Source: Flaccisagitta enflata (Eukaryota). From it: a stretch of 64,000 nucleotides of DNA. The DNA lies in NCBI GenBank assembly GCA_965153355.1, contig OZ231126.1, forward strand, positions 1,798,001-1,862,000, read 5' to 3'. The position numbers were made by a program, and so were the translations under genes. The notes beneath the pieces were generated by a model. That model did no database searches, was not told the DNA's origin, and saw nothing but the letters and a program-made list of their open reading frames with translations. Positions within the stretch are counted from its first letter, which is position 1, and every line of letters begins with the position of its first letter. Shown here piece by piece: positions 1 through 60,978 of this stretch.

Positions 1-2190
1 GCATTTGCTGTGTGGCAAGGAGATTTTGAATTCCTCAAAAACTTTGAAATTGAACGATGGACTGCGACGCTGGAAACTCAGGATGGTGAAAAACAACTGA
101 TGGTGTTCAGCGATGCGAGTAGTAAGGGATACGGCGTGGTGATATACGTGCGCCGGAAGACGCCGGATGGAAAGATTCACGTAGCGATCGTATGCTCGAA
201 GGCGCACGTGGTGCCGGTGAAAGACGCTGAAGCTGGGCACCACGATTCGATGCCGAGGCTGGAATTGCAGGCCGCGCGATTGGCGGCAAGGATGAGATCA
301 TCTGTGGAAAAAGAGACAGGGAGTTATGACAGTATCATTATGTGGACTGACTCTGAATGTGTGATTAAGCAACTTAATGATACAGTCACCCGATTTAAAG
401 TTTATTTTTCCAACCGCATCTCAGAAATACAGGCGTTGACGAGCGTGTCCGAGTGGAGATGGGTGCCTTCCGGGGAAAACCCGGCCGACGACTGTACCCA
501 TGGTCTTCTGGCGCGTGACCCGAAATGGCGACGTTTCCACAGTGGGCCGGAATTTTTGTGGCAAGACGAGACGGAATGGCCGGAAAAGCAGATCGTGTCG
601 GAACCATTCCCAGCGCATATCCTGGCTACGGCAGTGACAACTCCTGCAGTGGAAGAGACTTGGATATCGAGAATATCCCGCGGTGTTGCCTCGTGGCCAG
701 GAAAAGTACGTCGGATCGCGCTTTTCAAAAAGACGATAATGCGATGTGTAGTGAGACGACGCCCCGCAGTCGGTGGCAGCGGTGCGCAGTCAGCTACACT
801 GCGCGAGCTGCGAGACGCGGAAATGCTTCTGATACGGGACATTCAATCGCGGCATTTCAATGAAGAGATAAAAGCGTTGACGACGGCGCCAAAAGGCCCC
901 ACAAAGAGACATAAAGTGCACGCGAAATCGACGATAGTGGCATTGAACCCGTTCATCGATGCGAGTGGGATACTGCGCTGCATGGGACGTCTCACAAACT
1001 CGACGGATCTGAGCTACGACGCCAGACATCCAATAATACTCCCTCATGACGACGACGAAGTGTTGGTTTTGATAAGACTATTTCATGAATGTCACCTTCA
1101 CGCTGGCGTGGAACATGTGTTGGGAGAGTCGCGACCCCGTTTTTGGATCACAAAAGGGCGCCGCGTCGTGTCGCGCGTGGTAAAAGCATGCGTGGGATGT
1201 CAGAGACACTTCAAAGCGCCGGAGTCGCAGCAAATGGCGCCGCTTCCCGCAGAAAGGACGCATGCTTGTCGGCCCTTCGAGAATACGGGAGTAGACTGCT
1301 TTGGACCTGTGAAATGCAAAATTGTTGGAAGGGCATTTCACAAAGTGAATGTGGCTCTTTTTACGTGTATGGCGACGAGAGCAGTGCATTTCGAAGTATT
1401 GCGGAGTATGGACACATCGAGCTTTATTGATGCTCTGCAACGCTTTTGGGCGAGAAGACCGGCGGTGAGGCGCCTGTTTTCAGATTGTGGCTCAAACTTC
1501 ACTTCCGCCGAGAAAGAGATTGCGGCGGAAGTCGCGGCATGGAACGCGTCGTCGACGAAGGATTTGCGGCTGCTTGGGATCGAATGGAAGTTCAACCCAC
1601 CGACATCCCCTCATAGGGGTGGTGTGTGGGAGCGGCTTGTGAAAGCCGCGAAAAAACATTTAACGTTCGTATTGACATTGGACAACCTGAGCATCGAGAC
1701 GTTGACGACAGTGTTGGCTCAGGCGGAGTTGGCGATGAACTCGAGACCGATCACACACATCCCTGATGAGCCTGGAGTCCAAGCGCTGCGTCCGATTGAC
1801 TTTCTGTGCCCTGGTGTATTTGCGGCGTCGGACTGTGACATTCTTCCTCCATCGCCTCCGGATGCAGTGTGCCTTCGTTACAGTTGGCGCCAATCGAGAG
1901 CATTGGTTGACGAATTTTGGAACCGGTGGTCGCGGGATTATGTTTCGGCGCTACAAGCGCGGCCGAAATGGCGTTTGTCGGAGCCAAATTTGGAAGTCGG
2001 GGACGTGGTATTGATGGTGGATGAACAGTGTTGACGGGGTGATTGGCGGACTGGGGTGATTGTCGAGACGGATGGCCAGGACTTGGTGAGGACAATCTCC
2101 GTGCGGACGTCGAATGGGAAAATCTTTTCTCGCGATAGGACGAAGGTTGTCCGTTTGGAGTTGGACCCGCTTAGAGCGGATGTATCATAG
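1..2190 (+). CDS. pol: BEL/Pao Pol C-terminal part (RNase H, HHCC zinc finger, DDE integrase, DUF5641-like tail); 5'-partial, with in-frame TGA at 2032-2034
   Basis: Motifs FSDASSKGYG, MPRLELQAA, WTDSECV, WRWVPSGENPAD, H..H...CVGC, GVDCFGP, FSDCGSNF, GGVWERLVK. Past the TGA the same frame reads RGDWRTGVIVETDGQDLVRTISVRTSNGKIFSRDRTKVVRLELDPLRADVS to TAG at 2188-2190, matching the usual BEL integrase tail. Confidence 0.93.
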
Positions 2191-2538
2191 TGTATTATGT
2201 ATTAGATTTTTTTTTGTAGATGTGATTCTGTGGTGGTGGCGACTAGATTTTTCTGATGGTGTCTTTTCTTCTTTTAAACGCGCGTTTTCGCTGGGGCTTA
2301 TTCGCTTTGATGTTGATTCTCACTTTACCATTTTTTCTCGGATGACCGTTGGGCGATTGGGCTTTGCGTAATATCGTGTTGTTTGGGTTGGGGATATGTC
2401 GGTGGGATTTTTTCGTCACGCCTTATTTTACGTTTTTGTTGGTTTGTTTATTTTTACATTGATTTATTTTTTGATTGATTTTGATTTGTCTATTTTCGCA
2501 TTGATTTATGTTTTTATGATTTTGTTTTGCTGTATATA

Positions 2539-2569
2539 TTTTTTCTTCCTTTCTTTCCATGTCCCTTAG
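2539..2569 (+). promoter_or_regulatory. Candidate 3' splice acceptor upstream of the extra ORF
   Basis: Long polypyrimidine tract ttttttcttcctttctttccatgtccct followed by TAG at 2567-2569. Confidence 0.55.
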
Positions 2570-2638
2570 CTAGTTAGTAAAAAGTGGAATTGTGCTTCTT
2601 CATTGTGTTCTGTGAAAGTGTTAAGTCTTAGTGCAGTG

Positions 2639-4783
2639 ATGTCGGGATTGGAGATGGATGTGGATGATGGTGCTGGGGCACTCGGTGGTGGTGGTGAGGA
2701 ATGTAGTTGTGAAGGGGCCTGTGCTTGCGGCCGGGATGTGGATGGTGATGTGGTGGCTGATAGGGAAGAGGAGGAGGAGGAGGGGGCGAGCGACGTAAGC
2801 AGCGGTGCCGACGATAGTGACAGTGACAGTGATGAGGAGTTGGTGTTGGATGCGCGGAAGTATGCGAAGGAGTTCCGCCAGGTGGTGCCGGAGGGGATGG
2901 CGGCGGAAACTCTAGCAGTGATTAGGGAGGATGGTGTATTGATGGGTGGGCGCCGGGTTAACCCGAAGAAGTTGCCTTCGACGGGAGGTCCGGTGGTTCC
3001 CCCCTGGATGAACATTTGGACGGACATGCCAATGGAAATAAGAGACTTGTGTGGGTTGCGTCAGGTGGCGGTGGCGTTGCACAGGGTGGTGCACCCTGAG
3101 TATGAAAACATGTGTGTGATGCAGGTGGTGAGGCATGGGTGTATGCCGGATTTTTTCTTGGTGGTTGACGCGGAGAGGCCGGATGATTTGAGGAAAGTGG
3201 CAGCGGGGGCCTTTCGCGGGGAGTCGGTGATCTGGTGGGCACCGAAGAACGCCGACGGTGTAAGGTACGCGGTGCAGACTTTTATGAGCGACCCTGGTGA
3301 GTGTGAATTTTGGTCGTGGCACGATGAGGAGACTCATAGGGCCCCCCGCTGGTCTGTTTGGCCAAGCCGTTGCCCAGTGAAAAGGGTGTCAGTGTTTATG
3401 GAGCTGCCCCCAGTGACTATTTTTTTGAGGGAAGTGGATAAGGCGGTGAAGGCGTGCCCACCTGGCAGTGGCCCGGCGGTCCAATGGATCATTCGGGAGC
3501 TGTTGGATGGGGCCAAGAGCTGGAAAGACTTATATCGTGGACATAGGAATAGAAGGCCGGTATATGTGCCAGAGGTGTTGTTTGGGTCGATGGCAAAAAG
3601 GCCCGGTTTGAAGGAGGGCGTCGTGGCCTCTAATCAGTTGGTTTGTGACGCGATGGACGGACTTTATTTCGAGGAGAAGGACTCAGGGGATGTTGAGGAG
3701 CAGCTGGCGGCTGACGCGGAGGTGGTGGAAGGGGAGGTGGTGGTGCCGGAGGTGGATCCGGCGATGCCTCCATTGGAGCCGGTGGTGCCGGTGGTGCCGG
3801 TGGCGGATGACGGCGGTGGGGGCGCGGTGGAGGAGGAGGAGGAGGATGAGGAGCAGGCGGCGGCGCGGTTGCTGGAGGAAGAGAAGAAGAGGAAGAAGTC
3901 AGTGAGGCGGACGGAGCGGCGAAAGCGGTCGAAGATGGCGGCCAAGGCGAAGTTGGAGGAATTTCAGCGCCTGGGGAGTGAGCGGCTGAAGCAGGAGAAG
4001 GAACAGCGGCGTCTGGCGGAGGAGCAGAGGCGGCGGGAGGAGGAGCAGCAGCGTCTTGCGGAGCAGCAGCGCTTGGAGAGTGAGCGTCGTCGCCGGGAGG
4101 AGGAGGCTGCAAGGGAGGTGGAGCGGCTGGAGAAGTCGCTAAGGGATGCCCGGAATCAGCAGGCGCAGATCCGGCGGGGTGGCCATACTCGGTCCTCTTC
4201 GCAGGGGTCTGGCCGGGTTGATGGTCGGGCTGGTGGTGGCCATAATCGCGGTGGTGGTGGTGGTCATCATGGTGGAGGCGGGGGTGGTCATCGTGGTGGA
4301 GGCGGTGGTGGTCATCATAGTGGAGGCGGTGGTGGTCATCGTAGTGGTGGCAGTTTTCCCCGTGGGGGTGGTGGTAGCTTCCATCGTGGTGGTGGGGGCG
4401 GTGGTTTTCCGCGGGGCGGTGGTCTTCCGCGGGGTGGTGGTGGAGGTGGTGGTGGCGGTGGTCGGCCTTGGGTGGAGAGGGGGCATTGCGGTTTTCGCGT
4501 GCCTGACCGGCCGTCGTCGTCTTCCTCTTCGACGCGGCCACCTGCTTCCCCGACGCTGGATTCGTCCTTCGCGTCTTCTTCCTCCACTTTTTCTGAGCGC
4601 GAGATGGAGATCGCGCTGGCTTTTGCCTCTGGAATGCGGCATGCGGGGGATCGGTCACGTAGCGGTGAGCGGGCGGAGGAACCGTTGGCGGCTTCGTCCC
4701 CCGCTGCGTGGAGACCCTCACGTTCATCTGATCGTGGTGGTGACGGGCGGCGTGGGGGCCCGCCGCCGAACTTCCGGCGTTAG
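2639..4783 (+). CDS. Extra retrotransposon ORF (714 aa from first ATG), unknown function: acidic N-terminus, ~270-aa non-repetitive domain, coiled coil, RGG/Gly-His and Ser/Arg-rich tail
   Basis: Uninterrupted 2145-nt frame between the pol stop and the PPT/LTR. The ATG at 2639 has G at -3 and is the first ATG after the acceptor at 2569. No signal peptide or transmembrane segment is visible. Confidence 0.8.
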   Translation: MSGLEMDVDDGAGALGGGGEECSCEGACACGRDVDGDVVADREEEEEEGASDVSSGADDSDSDSDEELVLDARKYAKEFRQVVPEGMAAETLAVIREDGVLMGGRRVNPKKLPSTGGPVVPPWMNIWTDMPMEIRDLCGLRQVAVALHRVVHPEYENMCVMQVVRHGCMPDFFLVVDAERPDDLRKVAAGAFRGESVIWWAPKNADGVRYAVQTFMSDPGECEFWSWHDEETHRAPRWSVWPSRCPVKRVSVFMELPPVTIFLREVDKAVKACPPGSGPAVQWIIRELLDGAKSWKDLYRGHRNRRPVYVPEVLFGSMAKRPGLKEGVVASNQLVCDAMDGLYFEEKDSGDVEEQLAADAEVVEGEVVVPEVDPAMPPLEPVVPVVPVADDGGGGAVEEEEEDEEQAAARLLEEEKKRKKSVRRTERRKRSKMAAKAKLEEFQRLGSERLKQEKEQRRLAEEQRRREEEQQRLAEQQRLESERRRREEEAAREVERLEKSLRDARNQQAQIRRGGHTRSSSQGSGRVDGRAGGGHNRGGGGGHHGGGGGGHRGGGGGGHHSGGGGGHRSGGSFPRGGGGSFHRGGGGGGFPRGGGLPRGGGGGGGGGGRPWVERGHCGFRVPDRPSSSSSSTRPPASPTLDSSFASSSSTFSEREMEIALAFASGMRHAGDRSRSGERAEEPLAASSPAAWRPSRSSDRGGDGRRGGPPPNFRR

Positions 4784-4912
4784 CGGGCTGTTCCCGCTGT
4801 CCGTCCGTCCGTACTTCGTCCGTCACTTTCAGGTGGGGGTATCGTTTTTTTTTGGAGGTGGGACAATGTGACTGAGGTTGATTGGTTTGAAGTGGGCTTC
4901 AAACGGGCGGAC

Positions 4913-5536
4913 TGTGGAATATCGCGTTAGATTTTACCATTTTGTGATTATTTGTAATTGCATATTCTCTTTGGTTCGCCCTGTTTGTTGCCCATTTTGT
5001 GAATTTATATTATTGCTGATTTTCTTTCTTTAGTTATCAGTTGTAATGTTATTCGCTCTTCATTCCTGATCAATCTTGGGGTGCGTTTCCTTACCTGGTG
5101 AGTTTTGGATGGACTTGGTTGGTTGGTTAGTTGGTCGGTTTGGTTGGTTGGTCAGTTGGTCGATTGGATTAACTAGTTGTTTAGTTATATAGTTCTTATG
5201 TTGTTGAGTTATTGAGTTATTTAGGATGATAGGTTGTTAGGTTAATCTCTTTTCTTCTTTTCCCCTCTTCCTTTCCTTTCTATTATTTCAGCGTTTTTGT
5301 ACCCCTTTCAACCATAGAAGATATTGAGATGGCGACGACGAAAGACCTTATCCAAATGGAGACTTGATGACTTTGAGTGGATTCGTGGTGTTGGCGTTGT
5401 TGGCGCAGCGCGTGGCGTGGCATAGAGAGGATTGGCGCGGTCGTGACGCAGCGACTGCCGGACTGATTCATCATCGTCAACGTCAGCGCAAAGGTACTCT
5501 GACGGTTGGAGACTGTATTCTACGCGGTTCTTTACA
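4913..5536 (+). repeat. 3' LTR of the BEL/Pao element (5' boundary 4913, alternatively 4867)
   Basis: aaacgggcggac|TGT at 4913 or ggaggtgggacaa|TGT at 4867; ends ACA at 5536. It contains a GTGAGT donor (5098) and a polypyrimidine/TTTCAG acceptor (5291). The 5' LTR is not in the window, so boundaries are unconfirmed. Confidence 0.65.
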
Positions 5537-5542
5537 AGAGAG

Positions 5543-5630
<88 letters not shown>
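5537..5630. repeat. (AG)n microsatellite flanking the LTR
   Basis: Direct sequence. Confidence 0.98.
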
Positions 5631-5632
<2 letters not shown>

Positions 5633-6397
5633 CAGAGGGTTTACTAAAAAGATATCAAGCGTAAAAATGACGGACAAGATTTTTTGAAACGGCCTGATCA
5701 ATTTTTGATGGTTGGCATAACACTTTGGTGTCTTTGGTGGCGCCATCCAGTCGCCTCCTCGCCTTTATTTCTGTCGCCTTCTACCCTTTTATTTCTCTTA
5801 ATCTCCTCCCAACATAACATTTTCTTTGTCTTTTGTTTCCTGGGGTACATTCACATTTTTTTTGTTTTTTGTTCCCTGGGGTTCATTCAGATTTTCTTTA
5901 TCTTTTGTTTTCTGGGGTTCATTCACATTTTTTTTTTTGGTTTCCCGGGGTTTGTACACATTCTCAAGAAATTATGTTTCCTTGAGCTATCTTGTCCGCT
6001 TCTGTTCACGTAATCGCATTTTATTCTTGCTCACAACAAATGGTTATTGCTTCTTAAATTGCTTAGAAGCCAAATGGCTATATCCAGAGCAAGTTTAATA
6101 TCGTTTCATACTATTTTTACGCAGAAAAACTAGTCATACAATAGAAGTTTTGGTAAAAAAGTTCAAAAAATTGATGATTAAATATTTGGGTTTTGCCTCT
6201 TAACCTTCCATTATCATTTGAATTTTCTGCTCAGAAAAAAAAACCATAACAAGACGAATATGGCACAGATGTGGGACAAATGTGGAATACAAATTTGAAC
6301 GCGACCCAAATTTATACGTTTAGGGGCGGCATTTCTGCGCAAATTGTATGTTGTTACAAATCTGTGGCTTTTTTCTGTTGATTTAGTTGTCTGATAG

Positions 6398-6663
6398 AGG
6401 GCGGGTTTCCAGTCACAGACAATCGCGTTTTTAATGGGCCACTTGGTTGGTCGCTAACTATGTTCATTCGCTCGCACCACTCACTCCGCTCACTCAGTCC
6501 ATAGCGCTCTATTTTGCTACGCTCGCTCGCTCCGCTCACGAGCTCACTTACTCACTTCGCTCACTCCCTCATGAGACAGTTGAATTTCTTGGATATGTGT
6601 TCACGCTGTAAACGCGATTCACTGGAAGAATCGCATTTTTGCTCGTCAGTGGAAACACGCCCT
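6398..6663. mobile_element. MITE with ~19-bp TIRs and internal (CGCT/CACT)n
   Basis: Left end agggcgggtttccagtcac vs reverse complement of right end agggcgtgtttccactgac. A second right-end copy lies at ~6742-6759. No clear TSD. Confidence 0.6.
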
Positions 6664-6972
6664 GGAGAGATAGAGACAAAAGAAATAAAGGGAAATGAGA
6701 CATAGATAGAGACATACAGATTAAAGGGAATGATTCTGGTCGTCGGTGGAAACACGCCCAGAATCTTGATTGTTGAGTCTTCCTCCGCCTAAAAGATGAA
6801 ACGGTTAAAACGTAACAACAACAAACTCAAACTTAAAAGATGTCTCTTCCACGAACACTGCCAATCAGAGGATGTGTGTATCTAAGCCTTTGTTCTGACT
6901 TTCATATTCCTGTTTTTCTTGTCCTTTTGTTTGTTGAAGTAGTTGACAAGATAAACATACGAACAGTAGAAT

Positions 6973-11711: not shown

Positions 11712-12901
11712 TACTGACCATATGACGCTTTTGCGACTATTCTGCACTATATTCTTAATGGTTCAGTTAAGCTTTACTGGAGCGCATGTCAGGGACTACA
11801 AAAAAATTATTGCTAATATAGAAATATCTATAAAGTTCAATTTCCATGCCTTATATACGGTTAGGCCACATAAGTTGGTGGGCCACAGCGGTGCTCAACT
11901 GTACAACTGAGTAATGGTATCCTGTGCTAAACAATACACAAAATGCACAATTACACATGTCATAACTCGAGATCAAACAACAAATTAATATGAGGGGAGC
12001 ATTTATTCCATTCAAAAGGAGATTATGGCTGACATGAGGAGAACGAAAATGATGTAATGGGCCAGGGATAGGGGTTGGGGGTTGGGTTGGCGAGTGGGGG
12101 GGGGGGGAGTCTGAACAAGAAATTGCATGCTGTGATACAATGATGACTTTTCATTTACATTCTGGAACTGCCTATTGCCTAATCACATGAATGAAACAGG
12201 CAAAAATTTTCCAAAATCAGAAATGACATATTTTTGATAAATAATGACAAAAACAAATGAAACAGTAACAAAGAAAATTAAGTCGCTAGGAATGGAAAAA
12301 ATTCTTCCACGTAGAACCAAGGTACATGTAGACGTAGTTATATTGAAGCTGATATAAAACGATGGAAAAGAGCCGATATGGCGAAGAACAGCTCAAATCC
12401 AATGTACTGTCAATAGAATGTATTCATGTAAATCATATCATACATATGGCGAAAGTATTGGTATTTAATTCATAAGTACGGTTTTGCTCGTTTTGATTAA
12501 AAACGGGTCTATAGCATTTTCGTGGCGTTCCTAAATTTCTGATGAAGTTATGTTTCTTTCCCAATCAACTGTTCCTTGACATTCTGGTGGTATTGTAAAG
12601 ATAAATAAGGAGCCTAAAGACCTTTTTTTTCAAAAGCTATGTCAGAAATGACAATATCAACCACATAAATTAAATCGTTTGCACTCTTACTCTTTTTTTC
12701 GCCCTAATATTCTCATCATTCTAGTAATCAGTTATTCTATTACAATCATAAGCCACTCTTATTATCAACCATTTATATCAATTATTGTTCGCATGATAGG
12801 CATTTATCACAATCGCAACATTTGGCAAGGATTTTGGTCTTGTGAAGAATTGTTTTTTTTTATGGACAAGGACAAGGACAATATCTCTCTTGAGAATGTT
12901 T

Positions 12902-12907
12902 TTTATT
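12902..12907 (-). terminator. Candidate polyadenylation signal for engrailed
   Basis: AATAAA on the minus strand ~250 nt after the stop codon. Another candidate lies at 12002-12007. Usage is unverified. Confidence 0.3.
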
Positions 12908-12968
12908 TGTTTGCATAATGGATAAAGCGCGAGAATTTCAATTTGGGCCATGCTTCGAAACATGGGTC

Positions 12969-13152
<184 letters not shown>

Positions 13153-13158
13153 AACAAT

Positions 13159-13368
13159 TCACGGTGAGTCCACAACATCGATGATTCCTCCGACATCAAT
13201 TGGTGTTGGCGCTGATCTGACGTCATCTCCGTTGTTGTTGTCATTGACAGAAACGATGTTGTTTTCATCATTGTTGTTGTTGTTTGGATGATTCATGATG
13301 GACATTCTTTGGCCTTCTTCGTCGTCATCAGAACCGTCTTCCGTGACTGTTGCGTGGTTGTAAAGACC
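13159..13368 (-). CDS. en: Engrailed-family gene, coding exon 5 (end of EH5, acidic/Asn-rich tail, stop)
   Basis: tttccgttttag|GGTCTTTACAACCAC gives GLYNHATVTEDGSDDDEEG...DVVDSP*. Phase 0, completing EH5 LMAQ|GLYNH. Not shown in the ORF track. Confidence 0.93.
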   Translation of the reverse strand, partial: GLYNHATVTEDGSDDDEEGQRMSIMNHPNNNNNDENNIVSVNDNNNGDDVRSAPTPIDVGGIIDVVDSP

Positions 13369-14113
13369 CTAAAACGGAAAAGAAATATCGAAATGTCATC
13401 TATTCTGCCATGGTGACCCGCCGCAATAGAAAGAAAACCAAAGGAAACCTAGGGTAACCTACAATAACCTTATTGACCTATGAATAATTAATATGAACAT
13501 GTGCGGTAAATCCGTTTCCTCTCCTCCCTATCCAGATAACAGATACCAGGTCATATTTCATGGTGTTTATAAGGGTTGTTCAAAACTGGTTTTATTTTTA
13601 TCATTGCCCCTGCTCATAGACCAATCAACATCAGCATCACTGCTCCTTCCCAACCTCATTCTATATCAAGCCGTGGCTAGCATTTGCATTCGCCACCAAA
13701 GAATCATTATGCTCCCCTGTCCATTACAGGTCTAGCCATGTCAATGCGTTATCACGTTTACCTTTTATGAAAAGATTTTGCATAAGATGTCATATTATAC
13801 TCATATCGCTGCTTATGGCATATCATGTTTATTTATGACATGGCATGTTATGTCATTTCATTTCATTTCATTTTAATTACCCTGTTATCCGAGGTTTTTG
13901 TATCCCGGATGCGCTCTCCAAATTCCTAATGAGAAAAATGGAGAACCTTACCATACCTGACCATACCTTGCCATGCTTGATTACACCTTACCATACCTGA
14001 CCATACCCAACCATACCTGATGCTTATCATACCTTAGTGCTAACCATAGCTTATCGTTCCTTTGACCTTGTCATATCTTGTCTTTTGTTAAGTTGTTATT
14101 TTCTCTTTAATAC

Positions 14114-14261
14114 CTGTGCCATGAGATGGACCGCCAAATCGCTTCTTCTGCCAGCAGCTTTCTTAATTTTTGCTCTTTTGTTTTGAAACCAAATTTTGAT
14201 TTGAGATTCGTTGAGTTTTAATTCGGCCGCTAAATCTTGACGGCGCTTCTCCGTTAAGTAC
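14114..14261 (-). CDS. en: Engrailed-family gene, coding exon 4 (homeodomain helices 2-3, start of EH5)
   Basis: [49 protein letters not shown]. Acceptor ctatcag, donor CAG|GTATTA. Phase 2 in, phase 0 out. Confidence 0.97.
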
Positions 14262-14448
14262 CTGATAGTAGGTGAGGATGGGAAAAAAAGAATGGTCAAG
14301 TTCAGAATCAACAACATTTCCTTATAGGCCTAATTGTATTCATTTACCACAAATATCTAACCTTTTTCCGAGCAATGTCACTGTGGCTTCGTTCTTTCAG
14401 TTTCACATACTGTTTTATCATAAAAAAGTGATGATGTTGATTACGTAC

Positions 14449-14584
14449 CTGTTATCGTTAAACTCAGTTTTGAGTCTTGCCAGTTGTTCATTTGTAAATG
14501 CAGTTCTGGGTCTTTTTTCGCCGCTGACGGTGCTGACAGCGCCCGGGCTGCTGTCCCTCTTGCGGGAACGACGAGAACGAGGAC
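14449..14584 (-). CDS. en: Engrailed-family gene, coding exon 3 (EH3, homeodomain N-arm and helix 1)
   Basis: (G)[45 protein letters not shown]. Acceptor ccttttttccag, donor AG|GTACGT. Phase 1 in, phase 2 out. Confidence 0.97.
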
Positions 14585-15477
14585 CTGGAAAAAAGGAACA
14601 ATACGTGAAGAGAAGGTAAAACAACGCATAGTCACTAACGTAAGAAAATGGCAAATTGGTGAAATAGTTGTGGGGATTTAGTTTGATACTGATACACCAA
14701 TCTGGTAATCCTTCATGTCTGGCCCATTACTCAAATGGAAAAACACACCCAAAGGCTCTTTATCTTATTTCATTTTTTTATGACATTCCTCGCCAACGTT
14801 GAAAAGGTGACCAGAATGAGAAAATTATTAATGGTAAAAAATGTTAAAGCCTAAAAGCAATCATCATAACAAGCCAAATGCTTTTATGATGATGTCATAT
14901 GAGCTAATACAAATCCCTCAATTCAAATTCAGAAAACTTTGCATGCATATCATCATTTACATCAATATTGATTTACAACTCTCAACATGATTCTTGTATG
15001 AAATATGTTTAAAACATCGCGTTTCTGTCTCTACTGTTGCCTTTTTATTTTCCAATCTTTCAAAAAAAAAAGTGAAATATATGTTTTCATTTTCTTTTCT
15101 TTTTTTTCACTTTTGGTCTCGGACCCTTCAAAATGTTTTCTTTAAATAATTATTGTCGGTTTGCTAATCAAAAATGGCCATTTACTTTTTGCGTGACTTA
15201 ATTTGTTTTTGAATTTTAACAATTTATCTTTTTAAAACATTTATCGCTTTGAAACGTGTTTCCCCTCAGTTTTATCCAAAGGAAAGATCCTCAACAAATG
15301 CGTGCGAAAAATAGAAGAGATCAAAGTAAATGTAAAAAAGCTGAGGAACCATCGTCTAGATGAAAATGAAATGTAAACTAGTTAGTCACAAGGATATATC
15401 AAAATCGGTGAACATTTGATTTTTTGTTGATTCAATCACTTTCCACATTGACCATTTAGAGCGTGACTGCTCAAGAC

Positions 15478-15805
15478 TAGGGCGGCTACCTAGGGGCCAA
15501 ATGTGGTCAAATTTTAGAACGCCACAGCCAACTAACCATACACTGTATCTAAACTGTATTTAAAAGGGAATTGAGGCAAGCAGAGATTGGTATCTGGAAA
15601 GAAAACCCACACGGTTTCAATGGGCGTAAAATTGGTTTCATATACTTAACCATTGTTTTGCCGTGCGGGTTTCTTGATCAAATACCGACCTCTGCCTTTC
15701 TAATTTACTGCTCAGATGCCGGCATCATGCCGATTAGTATGTATGGTTAGATGGCGGAGGAATTTTAAATTTTGAGCCAAATTCACCCTTCAGGTGACCG
15801 CCCTA
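15478..15805. mobile_element. hAT-type MITE (328 bp) with perfect 8-bp TSD
   Basis: TSD CTCAAGAC at 15470-15477 and 15806-15813. TIRs tagggcggctacct / aggtgaccgcccta. Confidence 0.88.
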
Positions 15806-16119
15806 CTCAAGACATCTTGACAATACATTATTCAATTTTCTTGCCATCTAGGTTTGGAGTCAAATATTAGCAGCTGTTACTAAGTAGCTAGAATTGCAAG
15901 CAAAATAGTCATGACCGATAATTTTGAGTGAGAGACAGTGAGTAACCATCAAATGGGCGTTCAATGTCATTACGCGCCTCACCACTTAAACCCAACAATG
16001 CGAAGTTTTTATGCCCTACTAGAGGCCCCCAAAAAATAATTTAACGTCTCTTTTGACGGGTTTTCAAATGTCAAATTTCGGGTGTCAAATGTAGTAATTA
16101 TTCACGCGCATCTGAAAAA

Positions 16120-16158
<39 letters not shown>

Positions 16159-16713
16159 GCTTTCATGATGACAACCCCGGCGATTTCGTTTGTGCCTGTA
16201 TCATGTAAAATGATCTGCTTTCAAAAGAAGTGAAATTTGCCTTCTCGTCTCAAAATCGCTTTGAATTTCCTTTTCTGTTTTGATCTCTCCATTTTTCTGT
16301 CTCTCATTCTTTCTTTCTGTCTTTCTGCGTATCCATCTAACTATCTTTTTGGGCTACTGTCTTTCTGTCTTCTTGTCTTCCTGTCTTTGTCTTCTTGGCT
16401 TCCTATCATTTTTCTCTTCTGAAACTCCGTTTGAAATTGCTACTCTGTTTACTGTCTTAGCTCTTTTTCTTACCCGTCTATCCCTTTATGTGTTAATCCA
16501 TTCATTCTGTTTGCCAGGAACTTTGTATTCTGATGAGCAGTCTTGATATTACATAATTTTCTTTCTTTTAATGTTGCCCTTGTTTGTTTTTTTGATTGTG
16601 TTTTGCTTGTATTTTCTGTCTGTGCGTTCATTTTTTTGTCTGCTGTCTTTGCCTCTGTATAACTGCCGCCGTATAACTGCCTCTGTATCTATGTCTCTGT
16701 AAATAACTCTGTC

Positions 16714-16787
<74 letters not shown>

Positions 16788-17133
16788 ACTCAAGTAAGTC
16801 ATAAAGACTCTAAAGCTCATATTTCAAAATGTGCAATTCTTTTAGTCAAAAACGCATCAAAAGAATTCGTTTCATTACTTTAAAGTCATTTGCATTTTTT
16901 AGTTTATGAGTCTTCTCGTGTTCCGTCATGGTTTATTGGCTGCCTCACAAATCATCTACGTGTATGTACCTAGTTTTTACTTTCGTAGGTGCTTGGTATC
17001 AATATCTAATTGATATACGCGTTGTAGAGAGGGGGGGGGGGGCAGTTTGGTGGGGGGTGGTGTGCGTACTAGATCAACCCATGACGTTTAGAAATGGTTG
17101 TAGCAAAGTTTGTATGTGCATCTTCCTCTTAAA

Positions 17134-17950
17134 AACAAGGCCAACACCTTACAGTCGCGTGCGGTTGTTAAGACGTGCGGTTGTTTACCACTAAAAGACA
17201 AAAAGACTAAACGTAAATTATCTTGCATTAGTTTGAAATGACTAACCATAAGTGCAATAAAAATGGCTGATTTTTCAACAGCTTTGAGCACATGTTTTGG
17301 TTAAAAGATTCTTGAAACCATCCTAAAATTCATGTAGTGTAGAGAGATGTCAAAAATATCTTTCATTTGAGTCCATGTAGCAACTTTTTTCTCAATTCTT
17401 TTAGAAAATATGACAGATTAAAGGCTAACAACTAATTTGCCACCTCATGAAAAAACGGCCGAATTTGTCGCTTGGATTTTCTGAAATATTTTAGATGAGT
17501 AAAAAGGATAGAAGATCTTCATCGATTTTGATGAAATTTTAGGTGCTAGTTGACCCGTATTTGCCCTAATATCAATTCAATTTTCATCAATATCGGGCAA
17601 CGTCTTCTGTAATTTTTTAGGGAACTTTGTAAAAATACCATGGGCAGTTTCAAAATTGAGTGTTTTGACTAATCTTGCTCTCATTTGCATATTCATTGAG
17701 TTGGTGGTCCCACAAAAGTTTCAAATGAAAGATCTTTTGAAGGGCTTTCCAGGTGTCATGAGTTTCGCTATCTTCAGATAAGTTCTAGTTCTTTTACAGA
17801 CCTTTCAAAAATCGGCCATTTTTTTTGCACTTATGGTTAAAGATGACTTAAAATGACATAAAACGACGGAAAAAAGTTAAGTGTGAGCAACCGACCGACC
17901 GACGGACCGGCGGACAGAGCAGGTCATAGAGTCGCGTGCACGCGACTAAA
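17134..17950 (-). mobile_element. DINE-1/HINE-like element family 2 (long copy)
   Basis: Palindrome agtcgcgtgcacgcgact and (CCGA)n at the right end; matching agtcgcgtgc and aacaaggcc at the left end. A shorter relative lies at 22230-22432. Confidence 0.6.
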
Positions 17951-17974
17951 AAGAAATCTTCCTATTCTTCCTAT

Positions 17975-18336
17975 TCTTCTTCTTCTTCTTCTTCTTCTTC
18001 TTCTTCTTCTTCTTCTTCTTCTTCTTCTTCTTCTTCTTCTTCTTCTTTTTCTTCTTCTTTTTCTTCTTCTTCTTCTTCTTCTTCTTCTCTTCTTCTCTTC
18101 TTCTTCTTCTTCTTCTTCTTTCTTCTCTTCTTCTTCTCTTCTTCTTCTTCTTCTTTCTTCTTCTTCTTCTTCTTTTTCTTCTTCTTCTTCTTCTTCTTCT
18201 TCTTCTTCTTCTTTCTTCTTCTTCTTCTTCTTCTTCTTCTTCTTTCTTTCTTCTTCTTCTTCTTCTTTCTTCTTCTTCTTCTTCTTCTTCTTCTTCTTCT
18301 TCTTCTTCTTCTTCTTCTTCTTCTTCTTCTTCTTCT
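17975..18336. repeat. (CTT)n microsatellite, imperfect
   Basis: Direct sequence. Confidence 0.97.
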
Positions 18337-18718
18337 TGTTCTCCTGCTCTATTTGCTCCATCGGATTCTTGTCCCTCTCCTTCACCTTCACCTTCCTCCT
18401 TTCCTTCTCCGTCGCAATCTTCACTATCCTCTTTATTTCATCACCAACCTTCCTCTCCTTCTCCATCTTCTTCCTTCTCCTTCATCCTCATCATCCTCAT
18501 TTGTTTCATCGCCACCATCCTCATCGATTTTGTTTTGACATCGTAATCAATACCGTTGTAAGAAAAGCGTTGTAGTTGACAGGGATCGAAGACTTTTTCT
18601 CTCCCAAATGTGAAATAATGACTCCTTTTATCCATCCATCACAATCTGACATTGAGTTAATTCCTCCTCACGTTCAATTACACGGTCAAAGTCGCAAATT
18701 GTAGTCTCAAGACATGAT

Positions 18719-18757
<39 letters not shown>

Positions 18758-19162
18758 AATTTTACGATATACAAGTTGGCTTCTAAGAATTCAAGCTATT
18801 ACTTTTACCCGATTTACCAGGCTAGATTTCTTTCTCATTCATTTCTACTTCTTGATACTAATTACCATTTCTTGCTGCAACCTTCACGCGTTATTTTTCT
18901 TTTTTCTATATCAAGAATTTAAAAAGATTAACGGTTAAGAATTACGTTAATTCATTTGCGATGCAGTTACGTAAAAAAACTTTATAGTGCGGTGGCCACC
19001 AAAGTTACCTCAAATATCACAAAATTTGACGGGCGCGACGCGGGGCCCCGAGGGTACAAAGTCTCAGGGCCCCTAAAAATCTCATAATCGCAGGGCCCAG
19101 AATTCTGTTCCCTGAGACACCATATTCTTTTACTCCCTCTCTCTTAATCTTTTATTATCTCT

Positions 19163-19227
<65 letters not shown>

Positions 19228-19229
19228 TT

Positions 19230-19732
19230 GGGCAGCGGCCCCAAAGGGGACAAAGTCCTGTAGAACACAGGGGACTTCGTTCGTCCCCCCCAGGCCCTCT
19301 CAGGCCTGAAATCTGCCCTCTCAGGTTTAAAATCTGCCTTCTCAGGCCTGAAATCTGCCCTTTCTGGCCTTGAATCTGCCCTCTTAGGCCTAAAATTTAG
19401 CCTTTCAGGCCTGAAACCTGTCCTCTCAGGCCTTGAATCTGCCCTCTCAGGCCTGAAATCTGCCCTCTCAGATTCAAGGCCTGAGAGGGCAGATTTCAGG
19501 CTTGAGAGGGCAGGTTTCAGGCCTGAGAGGACAGATTTCAGGCCTGAGAGGGTTAGGGGGGGGTGGATGGACAGAAGAACGGACGGACGGACAAACGAAC
19601 GAACAAAAGTCCCCTGTGTTCTACAGGACTTTGTCCCCTTCGGGGCCGCTGCCCTGCCTCTCATTCCAATTTACAACCATGCAAAGCAGGGCAACGGGTA
19701 TCGCTGTCCAAGTATTGCCCTTGGGCGACCTA
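19230..19732 (+). mobile_element. DINE-1/HINE-like element family 1 (subtype A) with a 21-bp internal array that reverses orientation
   Basis: Arms gggcagcggcccc..cctgtagaacacagggg and its reverse complement, (TTCG)n, and tail ending ttgcccttgggcgacct. Confidence 0.8.
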
Positions 19733-19915
19733 TTTCTCTCTCTCTGGCTGAATTTTTCTTCCTGTTCCCCTCTTTTCCCCCCATCCCCAATTGCAACCCA
19801 AATTCCAGCTATAAGTGTGTTGTGTAACAAGGCCGGATACACGGCAGGACAGTTGCGGACGGTTGGGCAGGAGGGGGCATCCTCTGAATCACGAAATTCG
19901 TGCTTAAGTTAAATT

Positions 19916-20090: not shown

Positions 20091-21052
20091 TTCCACTTAA
20101 GCACACCCTAGTGCTTCAGTGGAATTGAAAATAACTCGTGTTTTTTGCAATTTGAGCTTCAGTGGAATTGGAAGTAACTTATTTTGTCATAGTAGAAAAG
20201 ATAGTCAAAATAATTTTTTTCAATGCTAAAACTAAAAACAAAAATAAAAAACAAAAAAACAAACAAAAAAAAGGAATAAAAAGAATGTGAAAAATGTAAT
20301 CCATATATGCACACCAAATATGACCTCCTTTCAGAACCAACAAGTCTGGTCTGTCTGTCTATCTGTTTGTCAGTCACATTTTACTTTTTTATGTTTTTTA
20401 TTCCCTGGCCTCTAACACCTGTCCGCATATTATTGTCCCAGTAGTGTCACAACTTTAGATGCCTCACTACGGCTGGTGAGGAACAATATAAATCTCTGTT
20501 ATTGGATGTCAGATGAGTATTTCCTAGTATGTTTCATATTGTTTTCTGTATTTAATCCCATTTTGGTTGCTTCATATCAACTTAATCAACCCTTGACCAC
20601 TATCCAACAACGCCCAGATTTGAATTTTTCTATAGCTTTGGTTTGAATTTTTAAAGGGTTCATTTCTAAGAAATCCATCAAAATCCATGGGCAAATTGAA
20701 GAACTTTTCAAAAGCTTTTTAGCCTTGAAATCCGCATCTGAGTATCTTTCTTCATACAGATTTGGTAGGAATCTGAGGTTGGTTAGGTTTTTCTTGTAAT
20801 TTTGCCATGATTTGCTTGGGCAATGTTTTTACTGTTTTTGATCTAATTCGATTTTGTATGAAGCAATTCGAGCTCTAACTGGTGCAAAAAACTGCATGTT
20901 GCTAAATATCCTCGTTTTGATTTGACAGTCATTTGATTTTGGGACAATAATATATGGACAGGTGTTATGCTCCTGCCCAAATGTGGCCTCAAATATGGCC
21001 CCTGCCAACCCACACCCAACTAGGGTAGTCGTGTATCCGGCCTTGTTTCTCT

Positions 21053-22086
<1,034 letters not shown>

Positions 22087-23813: not shown

Positions 23814-24172
23814 CACATTATGTTGATCAGCGGAGAATTTTCCCACACCCACGTTAATGTATCACTATTCAGTATCTGCCCAAATTAATCGCGACCACTG
23901 TATCAATCTTATGTGTTTTTTTTCTCTATATTCAAAATAAAAACGCTAAAAAAGTGAGGCCACCGACTTTTGTCCATTTGTCTTATTTATTTTGTGTGTG
24001 TAAGGGGGGGGGTAAGGGGGGCCCGTGAGATTCCCGCTCCTTAAACTTGTTTTTTTTTTTATTATATGCTCCCTTCTTTCTTTTTCTTCTCTTTGCCTAA
24101 TTCCCTTCCATCTTTTCCTCCATCCCCTTCTCCCCTTTATCCTTTCCACATTCTCTTATCCTTCTCCTTTTT

Positions 24173-24849
24173 GGGCAGCGGCCCGAAGGGGACGAAGTCC
24201 TGTAGAACACAGGGGGAACTTCGTTTGTTCGTCCGTTCGTCCATTCGTTAGTCCCCCCCTTCATCAGATCCTCAAATTCAGCCTCAAATTCAGCCTCTCA
24301 GGCCTCAAATCCAGCCTCTCAGGCCTCAAATCCAGCCTCTCAGGCCTCAAATCTAGCCTCTCAGGCCTCAAATCTAGCCTCTCAGACCTGAAATCTGGCC
24401 TCTCAGGCCTCAAATCTGGCCTCTCAGGCCTCAAATCCAAATTCTCAGGCCTCAAACCTGGCCTCTCATGCCTCAAATCAGGCCTCTCAGGCCTCAAACC
24501 AGCCATCTGAACCTCCATTTATTGCTCTCAGGCTTCAAATCAGTCCTCTGGCCTCTCAAGCCTTATCAGCTCTCTCAAGCCTCAAGTCAGCCCTTTCAAG
24601 CTTCCAATCGGCATTCTCAGACCTTATATCAGCCTTCTTAAGTTCTTAGACCTCAGTTTAGGCTCTTGAATGCCTTCAGTCAGCCCTCTATAGCATCTCA
24701 TCAACTTCTTCAGGTAGGACAAACCCCCTGTGTTCTACAGGACTTCGTCCCCTTCGGGGCCGCTGCCCTGCTTCCTCTCACTCCAATTCACAATCACTCA
24801 AAGCAGGGCAACGGGTATCGCTGACCACATATTGCCCTTGGGCGACCTG
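24173..24849 (+). mobile_element. DINE-1/HINE-like family 1, subtype A, 21-bp internal array
   Basis: ~45-bp inverted arms, (TTCG/TCCG)n, aggcctcaaatccagcctctc units, 3' tail with short hairpin, T-run flanks. Confidence 0.8.
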
Positions 24850-25541: not shown

Positions 25542-26843
25542 GGGCAGCGGCCCCGGAGGGGCAGATGACCTATGATTCCACACAGGGCGATTTTCTCCGT
25601 TTTCCGTTTTCCGTTTTCCGTCCCCCCCCCTTGGCCTCTAATCAGACCCATAGACCCCAATGAGGCCTCTCACACCATAAATCAGGCCTCTCAGACTCCA
25701 ATTCAGGCCTCTCAGACCCCAAATTGGGCCTTGCAGACACCAAATCACGCCTCCACACCCCAAATCACGCCTCAGAGACCCCAAATCAGGTCTCCCAGAC
25801 CCTAATCAGACTTCTCAGACCCCAATTAAGGCACCTCAGACCCCAACTCAAGCCTCTTAAACCCCAATTCAAGCCTCTCAGACTCCAATTCAAGCCCTTC
25901 AATCTCTATTTCAAGACCTTCAGACCCAATTCATGCCTCTCACAACCCAAATAGGGCATCTCAGACCCCAACAGGTCGCCCAAGGGCAATATGTGGTCAG
26001 CGATACCCGTTGCCCTGCTTTGAGTGATTGTGAATTGGAGTGAAGGGTAGCAGGGCAGCGGCCCCGAAGGGGACGATGTCCTGTAGAACACAGGGGGAAT
26101 TTTGTTCATCCTGCCTGAAGAAGTGGATGAGATGCTGACTGAAGGCCTTCAAGAGCCTTAACTGAGGTCTAAGAAGGCTGATGTAAGGCCTGAGAATGTC
26201 AATTGGAAGCTTGAGAAAGCTGGCCCTGAGAATTTGGATTTGAGGCCCGAGAAGCCTAATTAGAGGCCTGAGAGGCCAAGTTTGAAGCCTGAGAGGCTGG
26301 ATTTGAGACCTGAGAGGATAGATTTGAGGCCTGAGAGGCTGGATTTGAGGCCTGAGAGGCCGGATTTGAGGTCCCAGTGCCCAGATTTGAGGCCTGAGGG
26401 GCCCGATGAGGGGGGGGACGAACAAACGAACGAACGAACAAACGAACGAACGAAAGTCCCCTGTGTTCTACAGGACATCGTCCCCTTCGGGGCCGCTGCC
26501 CAAAAAAGGTCTCTCAGATCCCAAGTCAGGCCTCTCAGACTGCAAATCTGGCCTCTAAGAACTCAACAAAAGCCTCCCAGTCTCAAATTCAAGCCTCTCA
26601 GACCCCAATTCAAGCCTTTAGGAATCACCTGAGGTCTCTAAGAATCTAAATCAGGCACCTCAGGCCTCCCAGACCTAAAATCAGGCCTTTCAGACCCCAG
26701 ATTAGACCTCTTAAAAATCGCCCTGTGTGGAATCATAGGTCATCTGCCCCTCCGGGGGCGCTGCCCCTCTCACCCCCACATCCCTACATAAACTAACTTA
26801 GGGGCATCGGATACCGCTGACCATGTAACGCTTTTGCGACTAT
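25542..26843 (+). mobile_element. DINE-1/HINE-like family 1, subtype C, interrupted by a nested subtype A copy
   Basis: Arm ggagggg-cagatgacctatgattccacacagggcgatttt and its reverse complement at ~26714-26766. The internal array resumes after 26501. Confidence 0.8.
25972..26501 (-). mobile_element. Nested DINE-1/HINE-like subtype A copy
   Basis: Reverse-complement match to the 24173-24849 type. Inserted in an A-run (T-run on its own strand) inside a host repeat unit, with no other TSD. Confidence 0.8.
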
Positions 26844-27758: not shown

Positions 27759-27995
<237 letters not shown>

Positions 27996-50100: not shown

Positions 50101-50207
50101 TGTTATGGGTATTTTGTATTTGCTATCAAACATTGGGTCCATTGTATCGCCCCGTTCAGATCTAGATCTCCGTTTAGAATACTCATCAGCTTCAAATGCC
50201 TACTCAC

Positions 50208-60323: not shown

Positions 60324-60901
<578 letters not shown>

Positions 60902-60978
60902 TTAATTACTCTTGGATCCTGTAAGCAATGCCCAATCTTCAATGATGCAAAACTGTCATTTTTTGCTATGAAGGATTT

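Follow-up and report, generated by a model that had tools for sequence, protein, structure and literature searches.

A maintained non-envelope third gene with a predicted integrase-like core in a BEL/Pao retrotransposon of Flaccisagitta enflata

Introduction

The usual description of an LTR retrotransposon is that of a gag-pol element to which env may be added. Complex retroviruses have well-studied accessory genes other than env; among invertebrate elements, to our knowledge, CERV of Cer1 is essentially the sole example. In the Caenorhabditis elegans Ty3/gypsy element Cer1, CERV is encoded by an open reading frame (ORF) that sits at the env position and lacks Env homology (PMC10309623). According to the excerpts of that account on which we draw, the 517-aa protein is spliced from gag exons, has domains named H, M and G and perhaps a C4 zinc finger, is translated from a spliced mRNA, is nuclear, carries a KRKK candidate nuclear localization signal (NLS) and is needed for the export of genomic RNA (PMC10309623). 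The same excerpts, citing Vicient and Casacuberta (2020), describe the additional ORFs (aORFs) of plant LTR retrotransposons, which occupy the env position, are of unknown function and mostly lack clear homology (PMC10309623).

For BEL/Pao elements, the only extra genes named in excerpts of two accounts are env-like (PMC3118150, PMC13524379). These third ORFs include the F-like gene of roo, gB-like genes of mosquito BEL elements and those of the Tas/Cer elements (PMC13524379, PMC3118150).

The element considered here lies in a 64,000-nucleotide stretch of the Flaccisagitta enflata genome (GCA_965153355.1, contig OZ231126.1, positions 1,798,001 to 1,862,000 of the forward strand), referred to below as the window. 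Its third gene, ORF3, occupies the env position, between pol and the polypurine tract (PPT) and 3' LTR. The literature searched (main texts, with subscription journals outside coverage) yielded no non-envelope ORF3 of a BEL/Pao element, nor did a broader literature search for additional ORFs of LTR retrotransposons. We lean towards ORF3 being a selectively maintained, non-envelope accessory gene of a multi-copy BEL/Pao element, whose product may act as a ribonucleoprotein (RNP) scaffold or as an export/packaging factor.

Results

A BEL/Pao element with a third reading frame

Pao-type pol domains identified by Pfam support the assignment of the element to the BEL/Pao LTR retrotransposons, as the original prediction had it. 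Peptidase_A17 (6e-20), Integrase_H2C2 (2e-7) and DUF5641 (5.5e-21) score above their curated cut-offs, while the rve match (1e-5) reaches 26 bits, below its cut-off of 32.6 bits. Counted from the first nucleotide of the window, the element comprises:

1..2190, + strand: 3' part of a BEL/Pao pol, with RNase H/connection region, integrase zinc finger, integrase core and DUF5641 (Pfam)
2191..2538, + strand: T-rich spacer with tandem repeats between pol and ORF3 (TRF periods 16 and 42 at 2439-2529)
2539..2569, + strand: polypyrimidine tract with a terminal AG, 70 nt 5' of the ATG; candidate 3' splice acceptor
2639..4783, + strand: ORF3, an intact 714-codon accessory gene, stop included in the coordinates (frame, shuffles, variants)
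4854..4866, + strand: PPT adjoining the LTR on its 5' side (sequence)
4867..5536, + strand: 3' LTR of 670 bp, TGT...ACA (termini read, depth rise)

The 5' LTR, gag, PR and RT of the element lie outside the window, which holds no further copies of it. No LTR-like sequence or other element terminus was found between pol and ORF3. The position first given to the ORF, between the pol stop and the PPT/LTR, stands, with a correction to the pol stop itself: the codon originally taken for it is an in-frame TGA (2032-2034) within DUF5641, which the Pfam alignment crosses as X at residue 678 (profile positions 2-93 of 94), and pol naturally ends at TAG 2188-2190. The present copy is thus not wholly intact.

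ORF3 runs without a stop for 714 codons, from the ATG at 2639 to the TAG at 4781-4783 on the + strand (ORF list and translation); the earliest possible start after the preceding stop is a TTG at 2603, 12 codons 5' of this ATG. A chance frame of G-rich, A-poor sequence is ruled out by shuffling, as 714 open codons were reached in none of 2000 whole-ORF shuffles (longest 345) and none of 2000 block shuffles (longest 373). The probability of meeting no stop at the local composition is about 1e-11. Third-position A amounts to 6-11% in ORF3 versus 23% in pol, a composition that would fit a separate origin of ORF3. The frame and the sequence features listed for it are confirmed. Long antisense and alternative-frame ORFs are also present at 3630-4871 and are taken as compositional by-products.

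Regions of the ORF3 protein

The protein is divided into five regions:

2639..2983, + strand: acidic N-terminal region, residues 1-115 (composition, pLDDT under 50)
2984..3673, + strand: conserved domain, residues 116-345, with the folded core at about residues 126-305 (3014-3553)
3674..3877, + strand: acidic Val/Pro/Glu-rich linker, residues 346-413 (sequence; equivalents in the relatives P0013 and P0012)
3878..4174, + strand: basic NLS-like patch, then E/R/Q-rich helical stretch to about residue 512 (sequence)
4175..4780, + strand: low-complexity tail of Gly-His-Arg repeats, FPRGG/FHRGG boxes, poly-Gly, a Ser-rich stretch and an RG-rich end (TRF, composition)

The features that the original prediction had read from the letters are borne out in this order. 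Its acidic N-terminus holds 31 D+E against 11 K+R in residues 1-115, a region predicted to be disordered; a CxCx3CxC cluster at residues 22-30 is also found in P0003, P0033, P0035, P0009 and P0014. The Trp/Cys-containing domain has 10 Trp and 7 Cys in residues 116-345. The basic stretch, of KKRKK type, is EEKKRKKSVRRTERRKRSK at residues 414-432, and the EEQRR-type region appears as the E/R/Q-rich helical stretch; P0013 and P0012 contain an equivalent K/R/E-rich stretch. The estimate of about five GGH repeats agrees with a 24-nt tandem unit present 5.0 times at 4232-4351 and encoding GGH..GGGG (TRF). The FPRGG/FHRGG boxes lie at residues 573-585, followed by the Ser-rich stretch and the RG-rich end, GRRGGPPPNFRR. 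Altogether ORF3 has 9 RGG and 12 RG, mostly in residues 513-610 and 703-714, and the tail thus shows the clustered RGG/RG repeats in a Gly-rich region that define an RGG box.

The highest 19-residue Kyte-Doolittle mean in ORF3 is 1.28 and the N-terminus is acidic, so that, as first claimed, neither a transmembrane (TM) helix nor a signal-peptide-like start is found by this hydropathy script, and ORF3 is predicted to encode a soluble protein. Sequence matches in the PDB (SFPQ, GCN2 and others) fall in the charged helix and the Gly-rich tail and are treated as compositional, including the best match to the helical stretch, the SFPQ coiled-coil region (E 4e-4).

A family without a name

Twelve relatives of ORF3 were found among 1.84 billion representative proteins and three more by profile search, with identities from 95% to 23%. 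None of the 1.84 billion representatives is a named homologue or a related named host protein, no Pfam match to any of 13 family members appeared at E up to 10, and PDB profile searches with the family returned nothing relevant. These searches support the view that ORF3 belongs to a family without a name, a Pfam model or a PDB relative. A word-indexed search of proteins of near length with P0001 residues 60-350 gave no match, the ESM Atlas gave no usable match for the ORF3 domain or P0012, and the metagenome, viral and genome contigs searched held no related loci for the ORF3 domain or P0028. No fused pol-ORF3 form was found among longer proteins (1211-3455 aa), which is weak evidence.

Compared as proteins, family members span at least four divergent lineages, and four retain the architecture in full. 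For instance, P0013 (691 aa) follows the same order of domain, acidic linker, basic helix, RG region, Ser-rich stretch and RG end, and its C-terminal motif GGRGG..PP resembles the end of ORF3.

A predicted RNase H-like core

Residues 66-345 were modelled from a shallow alignment of 13 rows (Neff about 2). In the model, residues 126-305 or so are predicted to adopt an RNase H-like fold resembling the integrase catalytic core, with a five-stranded mixed sheet in the order b1-b2-b3-a1-b4-a2-b5 and flanking helices. The 14 highest structural matches are retroviral integrase catalytic cores, which also head the Foldseek list for the first model; integrase matches include 7usf_A, 6rwl_A, 2x6n_A and the Ty3 structure 7q5b_A, and PIWI structures rank after the integrases. 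The domain had originally been called unrecognised, which holds for its sequence, as neither Pfam nor the PDB offers a relative, and no longer holds for its predicted fold.

Strand 1, QVAVALHR (3062-3085), has no acidic residue, and D/E is absent from this strand in all five aligned lineages, residues being equated with those of integrases from secondary-structure order. The catalytic carboxylates of the integrase type are thus incomplete, and without the strand-1 aspartate the core probably has no nuclease activity. Charged residues are conserved in all five lineages at R135, R/K209 and E/D231 only; in the alignment, an Asp after strand 4 is conserved in most lineages.

These observations bear on an unlikely alternative, in which the core would come from a duplicated integrase/RNase H domain and would pair with integrase or with cDNA ends, regulating or targeting integration and not acting on RNA. 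The integrase cores at the head of both structural lists and the conserved Asp after strand 4 speak for it. At the sequence level no link between the ORF3 core and integrase was found: hhalign of the family against the pol of its own element returned a probability of 0.13. Modelling the ORF3 core together with P0002 residues 405-600, the integrase core, scored 0.00, with the alignment unused and the partner poorly folded, and speaks neither for nor against such pairing.

Copies and selection

Reads X1, X2 and X3 were placed on positions 1-6900 of the window, and copy level was taken as summed contig depth over 230-bp bins, which is not a copy number. Mean depths over nine bins for pol, ORF3 and unique flank were 4235, 3354 and 158 in X1, 2217, 1320 and 149 in X2, and 129, 46 and 1.8 in X3; ORF3 depth is 0.36-0.79 times that of pol. 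LTR bins have about four times the depth of internal bins, and in X1 they reach 12,486-17,514 (bins 4831-5520) before depth drops to 228 in bin 5521-5750. The spacer bin 2301-2530 has summed depths of 197 (X1), 80 (X2) and 2 (X3), with thousands on both sides, and multi-copy depth returns at bin 2531-2760; one X2 contig skips 2182-2276. At a likeness of at least 88%, the spacer is near single-copy and poorly common to the copies, and consequently no contig was seen bridging pol and ORF3 in siblings.

Among the best-supported 40 of 687 variants, synonymous changes account for 9 of the 12 in ORF3 (binomial P about 9e-4 for an expected fraction of 0.28) and for 18 of the 23 in pol, three of these 18 lying 3' of the TGA. 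Indels were considered for 12 of 48 entries: the two events in ORF3 keep the frame, one being -3 and the other a -1 paired with a +1 three bases away within the same contigs, and those just upstream (2583-2611) are of 1-2 nt. In the distant lineage of P0013, the 11 distinct copies of full length differ at 8 of 577 columns of the ORF, versus 18 of 114 columns upstream of the inferred Met (P 1e-9, Fisher test), and the sole indel is a single residue. The family that ORF3 defines shows purifying selection in two lineages or more. A frame broken in sibling copies, a dN/dS near 1, or a match to a known Env or a described BEL accessory protein had been named as grounds against the original prediction; among the listed variants and indels the frame is kept in sibling copies and substitutions are mostly synonymous, and no such match was found.

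An origin of ORF3 as a gene fragment captured from the host or a foreign source, or as part of another element joined to a truncated BEL/Pao pol, with no role in the cycle, would accord with the near single-copy spacer at 2301-2530, the third-position composition of ORF3, its depth below that of pol and the in-frame stop in the pol of the present copy. Such a chimera is nevertheless distinctly unlikely, since no element terminus separates pol from ORF3, ORF3 adjoins the PPT and LTR in a depth profile that fits one element, its synonymous bias equals that of pol, and no named host protein among the 1.84 billion representatives is related to it. The architecture shared by four divergent lineages, one with at least 11 distinct intact copies, argues in the same direction.

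Expression

A subgenomic mRNA for ORF3 may use the tract at 2539-2569 as its splice acceptor. From a single poly(A) RNA run, of which about 6% was read, no reads fell on ORF3 or on the candidate acceptor; 19 of 12.2 million reads were placed on the element, all as partial fits, with depth mostly in the LTR bin 5061-5290.

Discussion

In the reading that we favour, ORF3 protein would be made from a spliced subgenomic mRNA through the polypyrimidine-AG site, enter the nucleus by way of its KKRKK-type patch and oligomerise through the charged helix. Its RGG tail and inactive RNase H-like domain would bind element RNA or RNA-DNA intermediates, and the protein could thereby act as an RNP scaffold or as an export/packaging factor for the genomic RNA of the element, a role functionally comparable to that of CERV of Cer1 or of retroviral Rev-type proteins. 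Nuclear localisation, RNA binding and a chaperone, export or anti-silencing role are suggested by composition, that is, by the KKRKK-type patch and the 9 RGG. The original interpretation, that of a nuclear RNA-binding accessory factor, is in this sense partly supported.

RG repeats are potential methyl-arginine sites. An inactive RNase H/PIWI-like domain joined to such repeats might mimic PIWI-type proteins, or condensates of the protein might sequester Tudor/piRNA components. Counter-defence of this kind is improbable: PIWI matches rank below the integrases, and RG repeats are common in many unrelated proteins. A broader version, to which we give little credence, is that an ancient third gene is part of the BEL/Pao elements of marine animals, and that its dead integrase/PIWI-like domain and RG tail would form a counter-defence or RNA-shielding factor. 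Its product would engage proteins of the Tudor/piRNA pathway or build condensates around genomic RNA. That ORF3 is a diverged envelope or fusogen like those of roo, Tas/Cer7 and mosquito BEL elements is barely credible and was rejected even though env-like genes are the only extra BEL/Pao genes named in the excerpts cited above (PMC3118150, PMC13524379), because ORF3 lacks a hydrophobic signal and a hydrophobic anchor (its 19-residue hydropathy reaches 1.28 at most), has acidic and RGG-rich ends, has a predicted alpha/beta RNase H-like fold, and met no fusion glycoprotein among the 50 matches listed in each of five fold searches with residues 66-345. The non-Env nature first claimed for ORF3 is upheld on the same grounds.

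If its role as an accessory factor is confirmed, ORF3 would indicate that BEL/Pao elements have also evolved regulatory proteins, and would add a new pseudo-enzyme to those built on the RNase H fold. It would also provide a profile with which to annotate thousands of ORFs that are now anonymous in the genomes of marine animals and in plankton metagenomes. Should the ancient counter-defence or RNA-shielding reading be true, the BEL/Pao superfamily would have its first accessory protein of a Rev/CERV-like or anti-silencing kind.

Comparison with known systems

With the integrase catalytic core, the ORF3 core shares a predicted RNase H-like fold. Unlike integrases, ORF3 lacks the D,D,E triad, an rve match in Pfam and a zinc-binding N-terminal domain, and its core is fused to acidic, helical and RGG regions. 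LINE-1 ORF1p is a retroelement chaperone that combines a helix with RNA binding. Like it and like RGG-box RNA-binding proteins, ORF3 has multiple RGG beside a long helix, a likeness of composition only that suggests oligomeric nucleic-acid binding; RRM, KH and CCHC domains are absent from it. The env-like third ORFs of the same superfamily occupy the same position as ORF3 and encode viral fusion glycoproteins, whereas ORF3 lacks both a signal peptide and a TM helix and is predicted to fold differently. Likened by description, the aORFs belong to plant Ty3/gypsy and Ty1/copia lineages and ORF3 to an animal BEL/Pao element (PMC10309623).

Like export proteins of the Rev/CERV type, ORF3 is encoded 3' of pol. 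CERV belongs to a Ty3/gypsy element and ORF3 to a BEL/Pao element, and the localisation, splicing and export role of CERV are demonstrated, whereas those of ORF3 are proposed (PMC10309623). The RNase H-like core and RGG tail are features of ORF3 that do not occur in the excerpted description of CERV, by which the two were compared (PMC10309623). In the same excerpts, CERV resembles ORF3 in that neither is Env-like, both have homologues of narrow range and a basic KRKK-type NLS candidate, and both contain a helical region, zipper-like in CERV and E/R/Q-rich in ORF3 (PMC10309623).

A constrained frame in the env position

ORF3, the third open reading frame of a BEL/Pao element, occupies the env position and is a real, constrained, multi-copy gene that encodes a soluble protein and founds a new family. 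The element around it is laid out as follows.

Features of the element and of ORF3, read from sequence or, where named, Pfam
1-2031, +, 3' part of BEL/Pao pol (Pfam Peptidase_A17, Integrase_H2C2, rve, DUF5641)
2032-2034, +, in-frame TGA within DUF5641, the Pfam match continuing across it
Between pol and ORF3, +, T-rich spacer with short tandem repeats
2539-2569, +, polypyrimidine tract of 31 nt plus AG at the end of the spacer, 70 nt 5' of the ATG
2639-4783, +, ORF3, 714 codons without a stop, ATG to TAG
ORF3 start, +, acidic N-terminus
Residues 116-345, +, Trp/Cys-containing domain (10 W, 7 C)
Residues 414-432, +, basic stretch
After the basic stretch, +, E/R/Q-rich helical stretch
4232-4351, +, Gly-His units encoded by five 24-nt repeats
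ORF3 tail, +, FPRGG/FHRGG boxes (nine RGG in total)
ORF3 C-terminus, +, Ser-rich stretch, then RG-rich end
4854-4866, +, polypurine tract downstream of ORF3
4867-5536, +, 670-bp block with TGT...ACA ends, adjoining the polypurine tract
After 5536, (AG)48 microsatellite, then unique sequence

The length of the frame was reached in none of 2000 mononucleotide shuffles (maximum 345 codons) and none of 2000 block shuffles (maximum 373), so ORF3 is not a by-product of its G-rich, A-poor composition; local composition gives a probability of about 1e-11 that it would lack a stop. The original prediction of an intact frame carrying these features, from acidic N-terminus to RG-rich end, is borne out. 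With a maximum 19-residue hydropathy mean of 1.28 and an acidic N-terminus (hydropathy script), no transmembrane helix or signal peptide is seen, as had also been claimed.

The supposed pol stop at 2032-2034 proved to be the in-frame TGA. With this codon read as X, the DUF5641 match spans profile positions 2-93 of 94 and the frame closes at a TAG (2188-2190), so that pol is truncated by 52 codons in this copy while ORF3 is intact. Between pol and ORF3 there is nothing resembling an LTR, and no second copy occurs elsewhere in the 64-kb window. The polypyrimidine-AG at 2539-2569 is a candidate splice acceptor.

A CxCx3CxC cluster (window 2702-2728, residues 22-30), possibly a small site for metal binding, lies within the otherwise acidic and probably disordered N-terminus. 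Among related metagenomic proteins, the closer lineages (P0003, P0033, P0035, P0009, P0014) retain it, and P0012 and P0013 lack it.

A family of unnamed metagenome proteins

With residues 66-345 as query, a full HMMER scan over 1.84 billion representatives gave 12 proteins; a profile search added three. All are unnamed ENA metagenome records, none carrying a protein name. They include close siblings (P0003, P0005, P0033, P0035; 84-95% identity to ORF3), cousins (P0004, P0006, P0034; 45-59%) and three distant lineages (P0011, P0012, P0013; 23-26% over the aligned domain). The 691-residue P0013 has the whole architecture in order: domain, acidic linker, K/R/E-rich helix, RG-rich region, Ser-rich stretch and RG end. 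Its 90% cluster has 30 members; among the 15 listed, 11 are 690-691 residues long, all distinct. Across these eleven the inferred ORF has 8 variable columns out of 577, and the translation 5' of its inferred start has 18 out of 114 (Fisher P 1e-9). The sole indel is one residue long. Such a pattern is that of a constrained gene present in many copies.

Parts of ORF3 are also present in marine and plankton metagenome runs (X3-X12) from five studies besides that of organism A, six in all, and in the marine metagenome X3 depth rises and falls as it does in organism A. It is therefore probable that the host, or a species close to it, is a common animal of the marine plankton.

Selection on ORF3 and pol

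Among the 40 best-supported of 687 variants, 12 fall within ORF3: nine are third-position and synonymous and three non-synonymous, against an expected synonymous fraction of 0.28 (binomial P ~9e-4). For pol the count is 18 synonymous out of 23, three of the 18 lying 3' of the TGA and synonymous in the continuing frame. Among 12 of 48 indels, those inside ORF3 keep the frame: one removes 3 nt, and the other pairs a -1 with a +1 three bases away on the same contigs. Indels shortly before the ATG are of 1-2 nt. The synonymous bias and frame-keeping indels thus point to purifying selection on ORF3, much like that on pol, and the frame is not broken in the other copies so covered.

Predicted fold of the core

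The domain that could not originally be recognised has no Pfam match in ORF3, nor, with E allowed as high as 10, in the 13 family members, but AlphaFold and Foldseek give it a likely RNase H-like fold. The alignments behind the two AlphaFold models were shallow, with 12 and 13 rows. In the second model (residues 110-345; mean pLDDT 71.5, pTM 0.72, core blocks 85-94), the core runs b1-b2-b3-a1-b4-a2-b5 and then continues into two long helices, an RNase H-like arrangement. Beyond the leading retroviral integrase cores, the structural matches listed are mostly IS21 and other DDE transposases or Argonaute PIWI domains; Foldseek in PDB and BFVD returned the same families, never below E 1e-3. Since the Z-values are middling by the search tool's own yardstick, the RNase H-like fold is likely, a likelihood that covers the fold and not integrase descent. 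PDB sequence matches to ORF3 were compositional, and profile searches of PDB with the family were empty.

The first catalytic Asp is universal in RNase H-like nucleases. In all five lineages compared, strand 1 (QVAVALHR in ORF3) lacks acidic residues, so this Asp is missing; the 11 columns invariant across the lineages are Trp, Pro, Phe, Leu, Val, Ala and one Arg. From sequence and model we infer a non-catalytic domain. There is no sequence-level link to integrase, and hhalign of the family against the pol of the same element gave a probability of 0.13. That ORF3 is a pseudo-integrase acting at integration, as the leading structural matches might suggest, is unlikely.

Copy level across runs

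Contigs of X1 and X2 (DNA runs of organism A) and X3, together with raw reads of the poly(A) RNA run X17, were mapped on window 1-6900, and 230-bp bins were averaged by hand.

Mean summed contig depth, which is not a copy number but has an informative profile
Run: pol (9 bins); ORF3 (9 bins); LTR (3 bins); unique flank 5521-6210 (3 bins)
X1: 4235; 3354; 15440; 158
X2: 2217; 1320; 8408; 149
X3: 129; 46; 401; 1.8

By this profile ORF3 is repeated at about pol level (0.36-0.79 of pol), and the flanking block 4867-5536 is LTR-like, at about four times the internal bins. The spacer bin 2301-2530 has a depth of only 197, 80 and 2 (X1, X2, X3), which counts against a single element, and the mapped contigs showed none bridging pol to ORF3 in sibling copies. 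We attribute the low depth to rapid slippage in the T-rich repeats; one spacer contig contains 20 gap letters, and 2182-2276 is missing from another. Third codon positions are strongly A-poor and G/T-rich in ORF3 (A 6-11%, G 48-51%) versus pol 1-2031 (A 23%, G 37%). The 3' half of the element may owe this contrast to an origin of its own or to a distinct mutational history. A passenger or chimeric gene is quite improbable. X17 gave 0 reads on ORF3 in the ~6% of one library examined.

Other features of the window

Segments 44001-48259 and 48826-53129 are duplicated in tandem (97.2% identity across 4318 bp); this segmental duplication could be real or an assembly artefact. On the minus strand, each copy carries a long ORF with abundant Ser, Ala, Pro and Gln, no significant Pfam match and a terminal motif that we take to be engrailed-like. 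A repeat present in extremely many copies occupies 6211-6900, where summed contig depth is 1e5 to 6e5 in X1 and X2 (~1000 times the unique flank); its many internal joints of ~97-153 nt suggest a satellite. Long microsatellites, comprising (AG)n, (CT)n, (AC)n and poly-purine or poly-pyrimidine runs, are unusually abundant in the host sequence.

Repeats in the window
5537-5631, 17862-18575, 20829-21556, 27559-28158, 60257-60982 and others, long microsatellites
19155-19912, 24016-24510, 25997-26467, ~24-nt satellite

Possible role and relation to known systems

The original interpretation of ORF3 as a whole is partly supported. From composition and analogy, ORF3 would be expressed from a spliced subgenomic RNA, its protein entering the nucleus via the basic patch and oligomerising via the charged helix. 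The RGG tail and the core, predicted to be an inactive RNase H-like domain, might bind element RNA or RNA-DNA, and the protein could act as an RNP scaffold or an export or packaging factor. A counter-defence factor mimicking PIWI is very improbable. A divergent Env is practically excluded for this soluble protein, and the non-Env assignment stands.

In the available text of a BEL/Pao survey (PMC3118150) and of a paper from 2026 about elements with envelope genes (PMC13524379), the extra genes named for the superfamily are all env-like. A search of openly accessible main texts returned no description of a non-envelope third ORF in BEL/Pao, nor one under additional ORFs of LTR retrotransposons; Repbase-type annotations of such an ORF may exist. 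CERV, from the C. elegans Ty3/gypsy element Cer1, is an env-position ORF without Env homology, expressed from a spliced mRNA; according to the text available, its protein is nuclear and needed for genomic RNA export (PMC10309623). It is the nearest functional precedent for the proposed role of ORF3. Non-envelope accessory ORFs are already known as a class, including CERV, plant aORFs and retroviral regulators; the protein family carried by ORF3 is itself new.
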